From Bacteroidota bacterium (lineage in GTDB: Bacteria; Bacteroidota; Bacteroidia; 2-12-FULL-35-15), in assembly GCA_023251805.1 (NCBI GenBank), contig JAHEYB010000001.1, positions 104,384-168,383 on the forward strand: a stretch of DNA of 64,000 bases, given 5' to 3'. The notes under the pieces were generated by a model. The model made no database searches, was not told the DNA's origin, and saw only the letters and a program-made list of their open reading frames with translations. How positions within the stretch are numbered: position 1 is the stretch's first letter; each line of letters starts with the position of its first letter. This document shows, piece by piece, positions 3,784 to 42,855 of this stretch. The position numbers and the translations under genes were made by a program.

Positions 3784-4737
3784 CTACTCCTCAATCCCAA
3801 TATGCATCAAAGCATCACCTTGGTTCACCACAGGTTGGTTGTTGATTCCAACAATATAGCCATCAGCTGGGGAAATTAGTTTTTCATCGTGTTCCCCGTA
3901 TGGGTCACAGATGCGTCCAATGATTTCTCCTTTTCTGATATGAGAACCATTTGTTTTGGAAGTATGAAACAAACCGGATGATTTTGCTCTCACCCAAGTT
4001 GATTTATTTAAGAATACTGTTGGATTATTTGGAAGATCGGTCTTTAACATTTTTAAATGTTTCATCAAGCGAATACAACCATTCATTCCTTCGTTGATAG
4101 ATAAGTAATCGAAACGAGAAGATTCTCCGCCTTCAAATACCAAAATGGATTTCCCTTTTCTGGAAGCTTCTTTCCGTAGCGTATTATCACGGAAAGGAGA
4201 ATTGATAATCATTGCTGGAGAAAATTTTTTCCCCAAATCCAAATTCACTTTATTGCCAAATACACAACGCAACTGCGGGTAGTTGTTAATTTTTGCTCCG
4301 CCAGTATGAAAATCTATTCCAAAATCAATTTGTGGAATAATCTCATTCATTAAGTCGTAAGCAATTCTACCTCCCAATGAACCATTTTTTGTTCCTGGGA
4401 AACAACGGTTCAAATCTCTGCCATCGGGCAAATCGCGTGAGCCCGATAAAAACGAAATAATATTGATGACAGGAATCGCAATGATGCTTCCACACAAAGG
4501 TTTTTTTACATCATCACGTGTAATGAGCCTCCGTACAATTTCAATTCCATTAATTTCATCACCATGCATTCCTGCAAGAATCAATAGAGTAGGGCCTGGA
4601 TTTTTAGAACGAAAAACATAAACAGGGATTTCAATAACTGTTTTTGTTGGTAGTTGATACCAATTCAAACTCACCTGAGCATTTTGCCCAGGCTTAATAT
4701 CCATTCCGTTGATGTGTAAGTTTTTTGGTTCTGCCAT
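3784..4737 (-). CDS. Succinylglutamate desuccinylase/aspartoacylase (AstE/AspA, M14-like) family protein
   Basis: 317-aa ORF. LILAGMHGDEINGIEIVRRL zinc-ligand region and ..DFHTGG.. are typical of the family. Sits beside rimK. Confidence 0.85.
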   Translation of the reverse strand: MAEPKNLHINGMDIKPGQNAQVSLNWYQLPTKTVIEIPVYVFRSKNPGPTLLILAGMHGDEINGIEIVRRLITRDDVKKPLCGSIIAIPVINIISFLSGSRDLPDGRDLNRCFPGTKNGSLGGRIAYDLMNEIIPQIDFGIDFHTGGAKINNYPQLRCVFGNKVNLDLGKKFSPAMIINSPFRDNTLRKEASRKGKSILVFEGGESSRFDYLSINEGMNGCIRLMKHLKMLKTDLPNNPTVFLNKSTWVRAKSSGLFHTSKTNGSHIRKGEIIGRICDPYGEHDEKLISPADGYIVGINNQPVVNQGDALMHIGIEE

Positions 4738-31197: not shown

Positions 31198-31206
31198 ATA
31201 ATTGAA

Positions 31207-31241
31207 AATAATCCCGGTATTTATATCGGGATTATTTTTTT
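31207..31241 (+). terminator. Intrinsic terminator
   Basis: aataatcccg / cgggattatt 10-bp stem followed by a T-run. Confidence 0.8.
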
Positions 31242-31687: not shown

Positions 31688-31713
31688 AAATCCTCCCAAA
31701 TTTAAGGAGGATT
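31688..31713. terminator. Bidirectional hairpin terminator (strong on minus strand)
   Basis: aaatcctcc / ggaggattt stem. On the minus strand it is followed by seven T. Closes the tRNA/GIY-YIG transcription unit. Confidence 0.75.
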
Positions 31714-31779
31714 TGGTGGGCCCACTTGGAATCGAACCAAGCACCCACAGCCCCGATAGCCATAGGGGGAGTCTGTTGC
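31714..31779 (-). pseudogene. 3' two-thirds copy of the tRNA(CAT) gene, anticodon loop replaced by an 18-nt imperfect palindrome
   Basis: Minus strand: gcaacagactc-cccctatggctatcgggg-ctgtgggtgcttggttcgattccaagtgggcccacca. Outside the 18-nt insert it is identical to the intact tRNA at 32111..32187. Confidence 0.85.
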
Positions 31780-31786
31780 ATAGTAT

Positions 31787-32071
31787 TTATAGTTCTTTCA
31801 ATTTTACAATTAATTCAGGATGAAGAGTTAAGTTTTTAATATAAGGTTTACTCTTCATTTTTTTAATATGTTTTTCAATTTTTATAGCTTGAGTAAAAGA
31901 CGAGCATTCTATATTTAAAAACAATTGCCAATCATCTGCTTTTGCTGTAAAACGATGCTGGCCATATGAGTGATTGTTATGCTTAATTAGGCGTGAATCT
32001 AGGTCCTCGTGGCAAACTCCAATATAAAACCGATTAAGCTTTTGGCTATGTATTATGTAACAAGAATTCAT
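31787..32071 (-). CDS. GIY-YIG nuclease family protein (catalytic-domain-only, 94 aa)
   Basis: ATG 32071: MNSCYIIHSQKLNRFYIGVCHEDLDSRLIKHNN..., giving GIY-like CYI, then YIG, a conserved Arg, and later IEKHIKKMKSK (Glu). The longer track ORF to 32137 reads through the tRNA gene and is not credible. Confidence 0.8.
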   Translation of the reverse strand: MNSCYIIHSQKLNRFYIGVCHEDLDSRLIKHNNHSYGQHRFTAKADDWQLFLNIECSSFTQAIKIEKHIKKMKSKPYIKNLTLHPELIVKLKEL

Positions 32072-32110
32072 TTTATAAAGAACCCCGAAGTTATTACTCC
32101 GGGGTTGACT

Positions 32111-32187
32111 TGGTGGGCCCACTTGGAATCGAACCAAGCACCCACAGATTATGAGTCTGTTGCTCTAACCGAATGAGCTATAGGCCC
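32111..32187 (-). tRNA. tRNA, anticodon CAT (elongator Met or Ile2/lysidine), CCA encoded
   Basis: gggccta-ta-gctc-attcggtta-gagc-a-acaga-ctCATaa-tctgt-gggtg-cttgg-ttcgatt-ccaag-tgggccc-a-cca folds as a canonical 77-nt cloverleaf. It lacks the three G:C pairs of initiator tRNA anticodon stems. C4:G69 and C5:G68 fit E. coli TilS determinants, but this is not decisive. Confidence 0.9.
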
Positions 32188-32213
32188 AAGTCACTATTTT
32201 TACTTTATCTTTA

Positions 32214-32275
32214 CACCCACAGTCCCGATAGCTATCGGGAGAGTCTGTTGCTCTAACCGAATGAGCTATAGGCCC
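32214..32275 (-). pseudogene. 5' two-thirds copy of the tRNA(CAT) gene, anticodon loop replaced by a perfect 18-nt palindrome
   Basis: Minus strand: gggcctatagctcattcggttagagcaacagactc-tcccgatagctatcggga-ctgtgggtg, after which homology ends. The T arm and 3' acceptor strand are missing. Confidence 0.85.
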
Positions 32276-42731: not shown

Positions 42732-42855
42732 ATTCGACTACGCTCAGTATGACAAGAGCGGGAATAATTATGAACAGGGTTAGAAATATAAAAATAATCT
42801 CTGCGAACTCTGCGCCTTCCCTGCCTGCCGGCAGGCAGGTCTGCGCTCTTTGCGG
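42732..42855. repeat. Repeat-filled spacer inside the efflux operon
   Basis: attcgactacgctcagtatgac (42732..42753). CTGCG words and the perfect 20-nt palindrome cctgcctgccggcaggcagg (42820..42839). Confidence 0.75.

Follow-up and report, generated by a model that had tools for sequence, protein, structure and literature searches.

The locus examined here raises the question of why two partial copies of a tRNA gene carry a palindrome in their anticodon loops. It lies in a 64-kb stretch of a Bacteroidota assembly (GCA_023251805.1, contig JAHEYB010000001.1, positions 104,384 to 168,383), referred to as the window, and consists of an intact tRNA(CAU) gene (T2, 32111..32187), a 5' partial copy (T1, 32214..32275), a 3' partial copy (T3, 31714..31779) and, between T2 and T3, a gene for a 94-aa, single-domain, Ssn-like GIY-YIG nuclease (31787..32071), all on the minus strand. 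T1 comprises tRNA positions 1-34, the palindrome PAL1 and ctgtgggtg, so that it ends 9 nt past PAL1; T3 comprises gcaacagactc (11 nt), the palindrome PAL2, ctgtgggtg, the T arm, the acceptor strand and CCA. In both copies the palindrome stands for the ATAAT of the intact gene, between ...acagactc and ctgtgggtg.... PAL1 (TCCCGATAGCTATCGGGA, 32223..32240) is the canonical form of a phylum-wide repeat, here called PAL, and PAL2 (CCCCTATGGCTATCGGGG on the minus strand, 31751..31768) begins 18 nt past the stop codon of the nuclease gene. On the comparative evidence, PAL is probably the hairpin repeat of the adjacent nuclease gene, and the pair would be the Bacteroidota counterpart of the Ssn nucleases and their NTS/SRM repeats.

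When the window was read again, the coordinates and sequences that the initial annotation had given for the two palindromes were all correct: PAL1 is a perfect palindrome, PAL1 and PAL2 agree at 14 of 18 positions, the outermost pair is T:A in PAL1 and C:G in PAL2, and the stem of PAL2 is weakened by two inner differences. Chance does not explain the two palindromes, because the 16-nt core (with up to three mismatches) occurs at two sites only in the 64 kb, both at the cassette, where 0.02 were expected, and none of 100 shuffles yielded two such sites. As single-stranded DNA, the PAL1 segment folds with -8.0 kcal/mol (z = -3.1), and the PAL2 segment with -4.1 kcal/mol (z = 0.2), no better than shuffled sequence. 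At the PAL2 position of L005, from another sample of the same species (L numbers are labels for the fetched comparison loci), we found CCCCGATGGCTATCGGGG, which has one mutation fewer; PAL2 is therefore decaying in the window. The species is present in the metagenomes ERZ27296333, ERZ27297344 and ERZ27280176.

The state of the locus before the palindromes is indicated by relatives. L285 and L287 each have one intact tRNA(CAU) gene with promoter- and terminator-side flanks, no PAL and no nuclease gene; their HAD protein is 68-71% identical to that of the window, and the gene order of L285 (glyoxalase, tRNA, HAD) is the same. Both outer flanks of the split gene have their counterparts at the uninterrupted gene: the sequence upstream of T1 matches the promoter side of the gene in L285, and T3 is followed by the original intrinsic terminator (31688..31714, minus strand) and by a flank that again matches L285. 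Since the relatives carry a plain tRNA(CAU) gene without PAL and nuclease, the window holds an insert, and the matching flanks show that the ancestral locus was a single tRNA(CAU) gene. The insert (434 nt) is composed of a spacer, T2, a hairpin and the GIY-YIG gene, and lies between the two copies of a 38-nt direct repeat (left copy 32214-32251, right copy 31742..31779; 89% identity, start-to-start spacing 472 nt), each copy consisting of the 5' side of the anticodon stem, PAL, and the 3' side of the anticodon stem with the variable loop. From PAL1 to PAL2 inclusive, 490 nt stand in place of ATAAT, and T1 and T3 supply 34 and 46 nt of tRNA homology around the insert (in repeat comparison within the window, T1 is identical to the intact gene over 35 nt, and T3 shows 98% identity over 41 nt). 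The boundaries of the palindrome are the same in T1 and T3 because the 38-nt segment was duplicated at the ends of the insert, not because two equal replacements took place. As is typical of homing endonuclease genes, gene-free alleles occur at the same site (L285, L287) and the insert is bordered by homology. A decaying version was found in L288, in which T1 with PAL, the spacer, the intact tRNA and a broken GIY-YIG gene are left.

Two other classes of insert were considered for this locus and rejected. A tRNA intron (bulge-helix-bulge or group I) does not fit, as removal of the insert leaves no ATAAT and two anticodon bases are gone, and as PAL is not limited to anticodon loops (it is seen in D, variable and T loops as well as in stems). 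An integrase-driven island at a tRNA gene does not fit either, the 434 nt encoding the tRNA and the GIY-YIG protein only, with no integrase or recombinase.

PAL is not confined to this locus. A scan for its core, CCCGATAGCTATCGGG, in one genome per species gave at least 120 loci, and all 80 record titles shown belong to Bacteroidota, of several orders; viral contigs gave 74 further PAL stretches. The base that flanks the 16-mer on each side is complementary to its partner in 97% of 185 distinct instances (T/A in 150), and because complementarity beyond this base falls to background, PAL (N-CCCGATAGCTATCGGG-N') is, judging from these alignments, a discrete 18-bp unit across Bacteroidota. The layout of the window recurs in L001, L003, L007, L008 and L009, whose GIY-YIG proteins are 55-74% identical to that of the window; in the partial tRNAs of these loci, the parts replaced by PAL include segments of the D, variable and T loops and of the acceptor strand. 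PAL is also associated with other tRNAs, e.g., tRNA-Asn, and the same 18-mer recurs in five tRNA types, at varying positions of the tRNA, and at non-tRNA sites. Solitary PALs occupy several kinds of site, namely terminator hairpins (at the tip), other PALs (nested), rRNA spacers, the variable hairpin of an RT-17 RNA and the DNA between short low-complexity repeats. The proposal of "one defined replacement event or element" thus holds for the sharply bounded element but not for the single event, as the same 18-mer is seen at many unrelated sites across Bacteroidota; with its occurrence in terminator loops, in a hairpin of an RNA associated with reverse transcriptase, in other PALs and in rRNA spacers, PAL is the dispersed element that the initial annotation had named as an outcome contrary to its reading. 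The same recurrence bears on the idea that the palindrome is a scar of break repair in the DNA of the anticodon loop. Such a scar would agree with the few nucleotides lost per site (most often 5, range 3-6), but the inserted sequence is constant across Bacteroidota orders and unrelated to the local flanks, and because of this constancy the idea is effectively refuted.

The gene that accompanies PAL was sought independently of PAL. We fetched 80 metagenomic loci (462 kb) by alignment of the GIY-YIG protein alone, and they contain 102 genes of the family. Within 650 nt of a family gene were 129 of the 131 PAL-like sites, i.e., a density of 1.12 per kb near the gene against 0.006 per kb outside (195-fold). 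PAL is nearby in 86 of the 102 genes (at most 100 nt downstream in 77, upstream in 43, on both sides in 34), and of 88 distinct gene ends, 55 have the start of PAL 4-20 nt past the stop codon, usually within a displaced fragment of a tRNA, a spacing that PAL2 fits; in the window PAL1 and PAL2 bracket the GIY-YIG gene. These counts show PAL to be the repeat accompanying this GIY-YIG nuclease family, as judged by genomic position, and among the four explanations first offered for the palindrome, that of a recognition site of the adjacent nuclease agrees best with the comparative data. Also in favour of the link, variants of PAL that retain its two-fold symmetry recur beside many distinct proteins (CCCGAAAGCTTTCGGG beside 13, TCCGATAGCTATCGGA beside 11 and GCCGATAGCTATCGGC beside 3). 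In several gene ends the stop codon lies inside a tRNA-derived anticodon loop (ctgacTGTTAAtcagag) or inside PAL itself (CCCGATAG). A stop supplied by PAL (CCCGATAG) or by the anticodon loop of tRNA-Asn (GTTAA) is frequent (L231, L243, L245, L258 and L263; L242, L250 and others), and the C-terminal codons of such nucleases are therefore derived from the tRNA or the repeat.

The protein itself matches Pfam PF01541 (E = 4.7e-11, 43.3 bits against a cutoff of 22.6), with the GIY-YIG domain at residues 2-75 of the 94 aa. The pattern of catalytic residues of the superfamily (Tyr...Tyr-x-Gly...Arg...His...Glu...Asn) is present, and Y5, Y16, G18, R27, H31, E66 and N80 are invariant or nearly so among 28 relatives. 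No further family was found on the protein in Pfam, NCBIfam and PHROG profile searches, PADLOC gave one weak match (E = 4e-4), and tblastn of the protein against plasmids gave no match. One homolog (P0036) is labelled 'Rickettsiales', but its contigs have neighbour genes typical of Bacteroidota, so the label is probably a binning error.

A comparable pair of nuclease and repeat was described in 2025 (Chenal et al., PMC11893778). SsnA of Neisseria meningitidis, a GIY-YIG protein of 94 aa and one domain with the catalytic residues Y6, Y17 and E64, binds the NTS hairpin repeat (CGTCATTCCCGCGMAVGCGGGAATCYRG) as single-stranded DNA only and cuts a few nucleotides upstream of it; SRM repeats and Ssn are reported to co-occur strongly (81% of repeat-rich genomes); NTS repeats flank the ssnA gene and are dispersed in the genome, and Ssn homologues across phyla are flanked by SRM hairpin repeats (at least one nearby in 71%, on both sides in 42%), neither Bacteroidota nor tRNA genes being mentioned (PMC11893778). 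The window protein resembles SsnA in length and in its single GIY-YIG domain, and its Y5, Y16 and E66 lie near the positions of Y6, Y17 and E64. Short GC-rich inverted repeats able to form hairpins likewise flank its gene, PAL occurs at further sites across Bacteroidota, the stem ends of PAL and NTS are both TCCCG...CGGGA, and the share of genes with a repeat nearby is similar. For comparison at the protein level, three NTS-flanked Ssn-type open reading frames (ORFs) were taken from viral contigs (L329, L391, L294); a hidden Markov model of the family scored them with E = 6e-8 to 2e-5 (23-32 bits), and hhalign to an NTS-flanked Ssn-type ORF gave a probability of 94.8% at 26% identity. PAL cassettes differ from the Ssn loci in that their place is within tRNA genes, of which they duplicate parts while an intact copy is carried along or regenerated, and in that PAL replaces 3-6 nt, mostly in tRNA loops.

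For 41 PAL/tRNA contexts, the junctions were mapped on the intact tRNA found at the same locus. The stretch that PAL replaces is 5 nt long in 26 contexts, 3 nt in six and 6 nt in another six (range 3-6); by site, 13 of the PALs are in the anticodon loop, 11 in the variable loop, about 8 in the D loop, 3-4 in the T loop and 5 on the 3' side of the D stem. On the truncated side, about 6-19 nt of tRNA-derived sequence extend past PAL whatever its position in the tRNA, and these junctions are consistent with a cut a few nucleotides 5' of the hairpin, as made by SsnA. The bracketing 5' and 3' partial copies share 11-13 nt on the left side of PAL and 8-10 nt on its right side, and the repeat flanking the insert measures 38 nt in the window and in L192 and about 41 nt in L003. 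Tandem arrays with a period of 95-115 nt and up to seven units were found in L210 (4390-5450), L215 (1-670) and L234 (1-420), each unit consisting of a partial tRNA, PAL, a terminator and ~15 nt from the 3' end of the nuclease gene; by their composition, the arrays look like cassettes from which the nuclease gene was deleted. L210 also includes, at 4626-4713, a full-length tRNA-Asn with PAL for its 5-nt variable loop, which ARAGORN calls as a tRNA with a long variable arm and which could be a functional allele, a landing site of the cassette or an annotation trap.

If the nuclease acts in the manner of SsnA, it would bind the PAL hairpin on single-stranded DNA and nick about 10 nt 5' of it. 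Because PAL is symmetric and reads the same on both strands, both strands would be nickable, and two nicks would give a staggered break with overhangs of about 38 nt (about 10 + 18 + 10). Filling-in of the overhangs and joining, or copying, of the cassette might then produce the 38-nt direct repeat, and one-sided nicks might produce the one-sided junctions and the arrays seen with tRNA-Asn. The same activity, acting mostly near its own gene, might also seed PAL into other exposed loops and make partial tRNA copies and tandem arrays. Retention of the cassette may be under selection, because recombination between the repeats would leave a tRNA gene without an anticodon. Taken as a whole, the proposal that PAL and the GIY-YIG nuclease form a self-propagating two-part element, which would nick about 10 nt 5' of the hairpin, make long staggered breaks, copy PAL into loops and hold the tRNA hostage, is put forward here tentatively, as a possibility about which we are doubtful.

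Several points weigh against reading PAL as the repeat of an Ssn-type nuclease, or against the staggered-cut model. The model needs a target that already has PAL in its anticodon loop, and such a target would be a dead essential gene, except if PAL and the cassette arrived in a coupled manner or there was a second copy; nor does the model explain the entry of PAL into a new site with replacement of 3-6 nt. The published SRM motif including its oriented HGTCWY flank finds no match among about 410 PAL sites (its hairpin core, taken by itself, fits 110 of 412, which are essentially the variants flanked by C...G), and PAL is fully symmetric without an oriented GTCA-type flank, whereas recognition of NTS is directional. 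The family profile scores UPF0213 structures (21-27 bits) about as high as the Ssn-type ORFs, and the window protein is Ssn-like, a candidate for the Ssn clade (CDD cd10448). The symmetric variants of PAL are scattered over the protein tree, mixed within single loci and not sorted by nuclease clade; because the variants do not co-vary with the clades, the specificity of a nuclease cannot be argued from the type of PAL. Furthermore, a family gene is present in the fetched stretch of 3 of the 120 listed genome loci with PAL and in none of the 74 viral loci (117 and 74 are without it), and because most solitary PALs have no family gene in the fetched stretch, action in trans must be assumed.

The last two points might be a consequence of PAL being an independent miniature palindromic mobile element without an enzymatic link to the GIY-YIG protein, which inserts in hairpin loops and accumulates in the neutral, hairpin-rich dead halves of tRNA genes. 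This would account for the solitary copies, for PAL nested in PAL, in terminator loops and in the RT-17 RNA hairpin, for variants that do not follow the nuclease clades, and for partial tRNAs with PAL at L183, where no GIY-YIG gene was found in the fetched 4.6 kb (the stretch of L117, 538 nt, is too short to judge). However, an independent element leaves unexplained the 195-fold enrichment by one gene family, the spacing of 4-20 nt from the stop codon and the tie between PAL and the points at which the tRNAs are truncated. Besides, no other protein family recurs beside the solitary PALs: when the ORFs within 1.2 kb of PAL were clustered in 194 loci, no family was found in more than 8 loci. We consider the independent element unlikely. 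Insertion into hairpins is not a general rule for PAL, since the flanks past the 18-mer are not complementary in register; a long-hairpin context applies only to a subset (inverted matches of 6 nt or more between the flanks were seen at 24 sites, with 5 expected).

The reading of PAL as the nuclease's repeat leaves room for a selective role of the two copies at the locus. The initial annotation had suggested a nuclease-resistant immune allele, and in a broader form both halves would retain PAL chiefly for immunity or addiction, in that it destroys the cleavage site in the flanking copies and makes deletion of the cassette yield a tRNA without an anticodon. With PAL in both repeats, the recombinant gene (5' half, PAL, 3' half) does lack the anticodon, and the expectation that a gene rebuilt from both halves could not decode is supported; the sole intact copy of tRNA(CAU) at the locus, T2 (by ARAGORN), lies inside the insert, and free-standing GIY-YIG homing endonucleases usually cut their donor allele poorly (PMC13096335). 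On the other hand, any mutation would confer immunity, yet one and the same 18-mer is found with five tRNA types and outside tRNAs, the internal intact tRNA keeps its wild-type loop, and PAL2 is decaying here. As the main reason for the palindromes we give immunity or addiction little credence; a secondary benefit, in that loss of the cassette means loss of the tRNA, is plausible.

A function of PAL as RNA, either as a 3' stabiliser or terminator hairpin of the nuclease mRNA or as a part of a tRNA-like non-coding RNA with extended arms, might be suggested by its position directly past the stop codon, its presence at the tips of many terminator hairpins and the full-length tRNA-Asn of L210, in which ARAGORN accepted PAL as a long variable arm. 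In the window, however, no U-tract follows PAL, the decay of PAL2 weakens the case, and T1 and T3 are fragments unable to form a cloverleaf. The tRNA-shaped RNA with an extended arm proposed in the initial annotation has no contiguous gene here, and the 90-nt sequence joined from the two halves does not fold as a cloverleaf. Rfam gave no match at the window locus besides the tRNA itself, and thus none for PAL. The single-change variants CCCGATGGCTATCGGG and CCCGATAGCCATCGGG are about equally frequent on the sense strand of the gene, which argues against a preference for G-U pairs in a sense RNA. A role of PAL as RNA is accordingly very improbable.

Other known systems share some of these features. 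REP/REPIN sequences and RAYT genes constitute a system in which a single small gene is flanked by its own palindromic repeats, which spread as non-autonomous copies (PMC2817692, PMC3116915). The likeness lies in short palindromes that flank their own small gene and in dispersed copies that are often situated at gene 3' ends, whereas the enzyme there is a HUH tyrosine transposase and not a GIY-YIG protein, the REPs are imperfect and have GTAG or CGTC tags, and they are not reported to plug tRNA loops. Membership of the window cassette in the REP-RAYT group was rejected, the only gene of the insert other than the tRNA being that of the GIY-YIG protein, with no HUH (Y1) transposase. SegB is a free-standing GIY-YIG homing endonuclease in the tRNA clusters of T-even phages, where it causes breaks in tRNA-containing DNA and tandem amplification of segments with tRNA and nuclease via short homologies (PMC13096335). 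The position of the nuclease gene among tRNA genes is similar, and the tandem amplification resembles the arrays of L210, L215 and L234, but SegB is a phage gene without a hairpin repeat and the gene of the window is chromosomal. SegB is also larger and has a DNA-binding region. A SegB or I-TevI type of nuclease was rejected for the window, as the separate domain for a long asymmetric double-stranded site is absent and the protein consists of the catalytic domain only. Short self-complementary inserts that are tolerated in loops of RNA genes include the Rickettsia palindromic elements and, in fungal mitochondria, GC clusters and double-hairpin elements; such elements can nest in each other, are longer than PAL (~30-150 bp) and belong to other lineages. 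To our knowledge, none of them has a linked GIY-YIG gene at a fixed spacing.

Our literature searches found no published description of the PAL sequence or of a tRNA-linked GIY-YIG gene in Bacteroidota. Residence in tRNA genes, a carried replacement tRNA, the plugging of loops and a repeat that the published motif misses are unreported for Ssn-type systems. If the proposal of a self-propagating two-part element is true, these loci represent the first natural before-and-after footprints of the multiplication of Ssn-type hairpin repeats. In any case, the spread of such repeats becomes directly testable with them. The Bacteroidota loci allow comparisons of uninterrupted with split genes, intact with plugged loops and single units with arrays, and they provide testable numbers (about 10 nt from hairpin to junction, a duplication of about 38 nt, and 3-6 nt replaced by 18 nt). 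The cassette is a selfish one that disrupts a tRNA gene and itself supplies the replacement copy. For annotation, it is of consequence that the published SRM motif misses the whole PAL branch and that fragments with PAL and tRNA look-alikes can be miscalled as tRNA genes.

The remaining parts of the insert are the spacer and the hairpin. The spacer between T1 and T2 (26 nt, taaagataaagtaaaaatagtgactt, 32188..32213, minus strand) resembles at its start the spacer of L192 at the same position (taaagataaataat), and that of L288 less closely (ctattaagataaaatacct). T2 was predicted by ARAGORN as tRNA-CAT and matched the Rfam tRNA model with 67.6 bits; its identity to E. coli tRNAs is about 76% for Met against about 72% for the lysidine Ile2 type, and it may be of either type. 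The hairpin after T2 (aaccccggagtaataacttcggggtt, 32081..32106, minus strand, read from the sequence) has equivalents 3' of the intact tRNA in L001, L003, L008 and L192 and is likely a transcript end or a processing signal of the tRNA.

A derivation of PAL from the 5' end of a tRNA (acceptor stem and U8-A9-G10-C11) was considered and rejected, since none of 34 tRNAs in the fetched loci starts in this way. In L061 (2640-2720), L067, L075, L117 (440-500), L163 and L201, a PAL is situated in the centre of another PAL, where it replaces CTA or GAT; the tip of PAL is therefore itself a target. In L165 (500-700), three PALs and partial tRNA-Ala copies were found between tRNA-Ala and the 23S rRNA of an rRNA operon. 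Many solitary PALs (e.g., in L020, L061, L094, L162, L182 and L195) are located in low-complexity DNA composed of short words, such as attgataattgataattgataatt and acgaatgtacgaatg, and 28 direct repeats of 6 nt or more were counted in the flanks of solitary PALs, where 3.5 were expected. In the viral locus L079 (3531-3621), an Rfam RT-17 RNA next to a reverse transcriptase gene has PAL as its variable central hairpin, and the same is seen in L078, there about 28 nt ahead of a gene for a 320-aa reverse transcriptase; RT-17 was the only match involving PAL when 14 solitary-PAL loci were searched with Rfam. Reverse transcription of this hairpin, if it occurs, would yield PAL as a single-stranded hairpin, which might serve as a decoy for the repeat or as its source; no link of these RT-17/PAL loci to the UG27 systems of a 2026 preprint was established.

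Some further palindromes are related to PAL in form or position. About 500 nt from the cassette, the gene located upstream of glyoxalase has a terminator (31204-31239) with aTCCCGGTATTTATATCGGGAt (31211..31232, plus strand) at its tip. This sequence has the outer TCCCG...CGGGA in common with PAL, one arm being one base off; it may be a diverged PAL, although its membership, based on comparison by eye, is uncertain. A second perfect GC-rich palindrome, CCTGCCTGCCGGCAGGCAGG, is present at 42820-42839 of the window, in an intergenic region between two long ORFs and among short words (ctgcg...). Related palindromes (gcctgccggcaggc, cctgtctgccgacaggcagg) plug the T loops of partial tRNAs in L199 and L122 and occur beside solitary PALs in L174 and L119, which suggests further repeat families. 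Other palindromes in loops of partial tRNAs are GTCCGCCTAGGTGGAC, TCCCGACATGTAATGTCGGGA, TCCCGCCAATGGCGGGA and TCCGCCAACTGGCGGA (L001 2828-2845; L122 7720-7790; L199 930-1180), some of which carry the outer TCCCG...CGGGA as PAL does.

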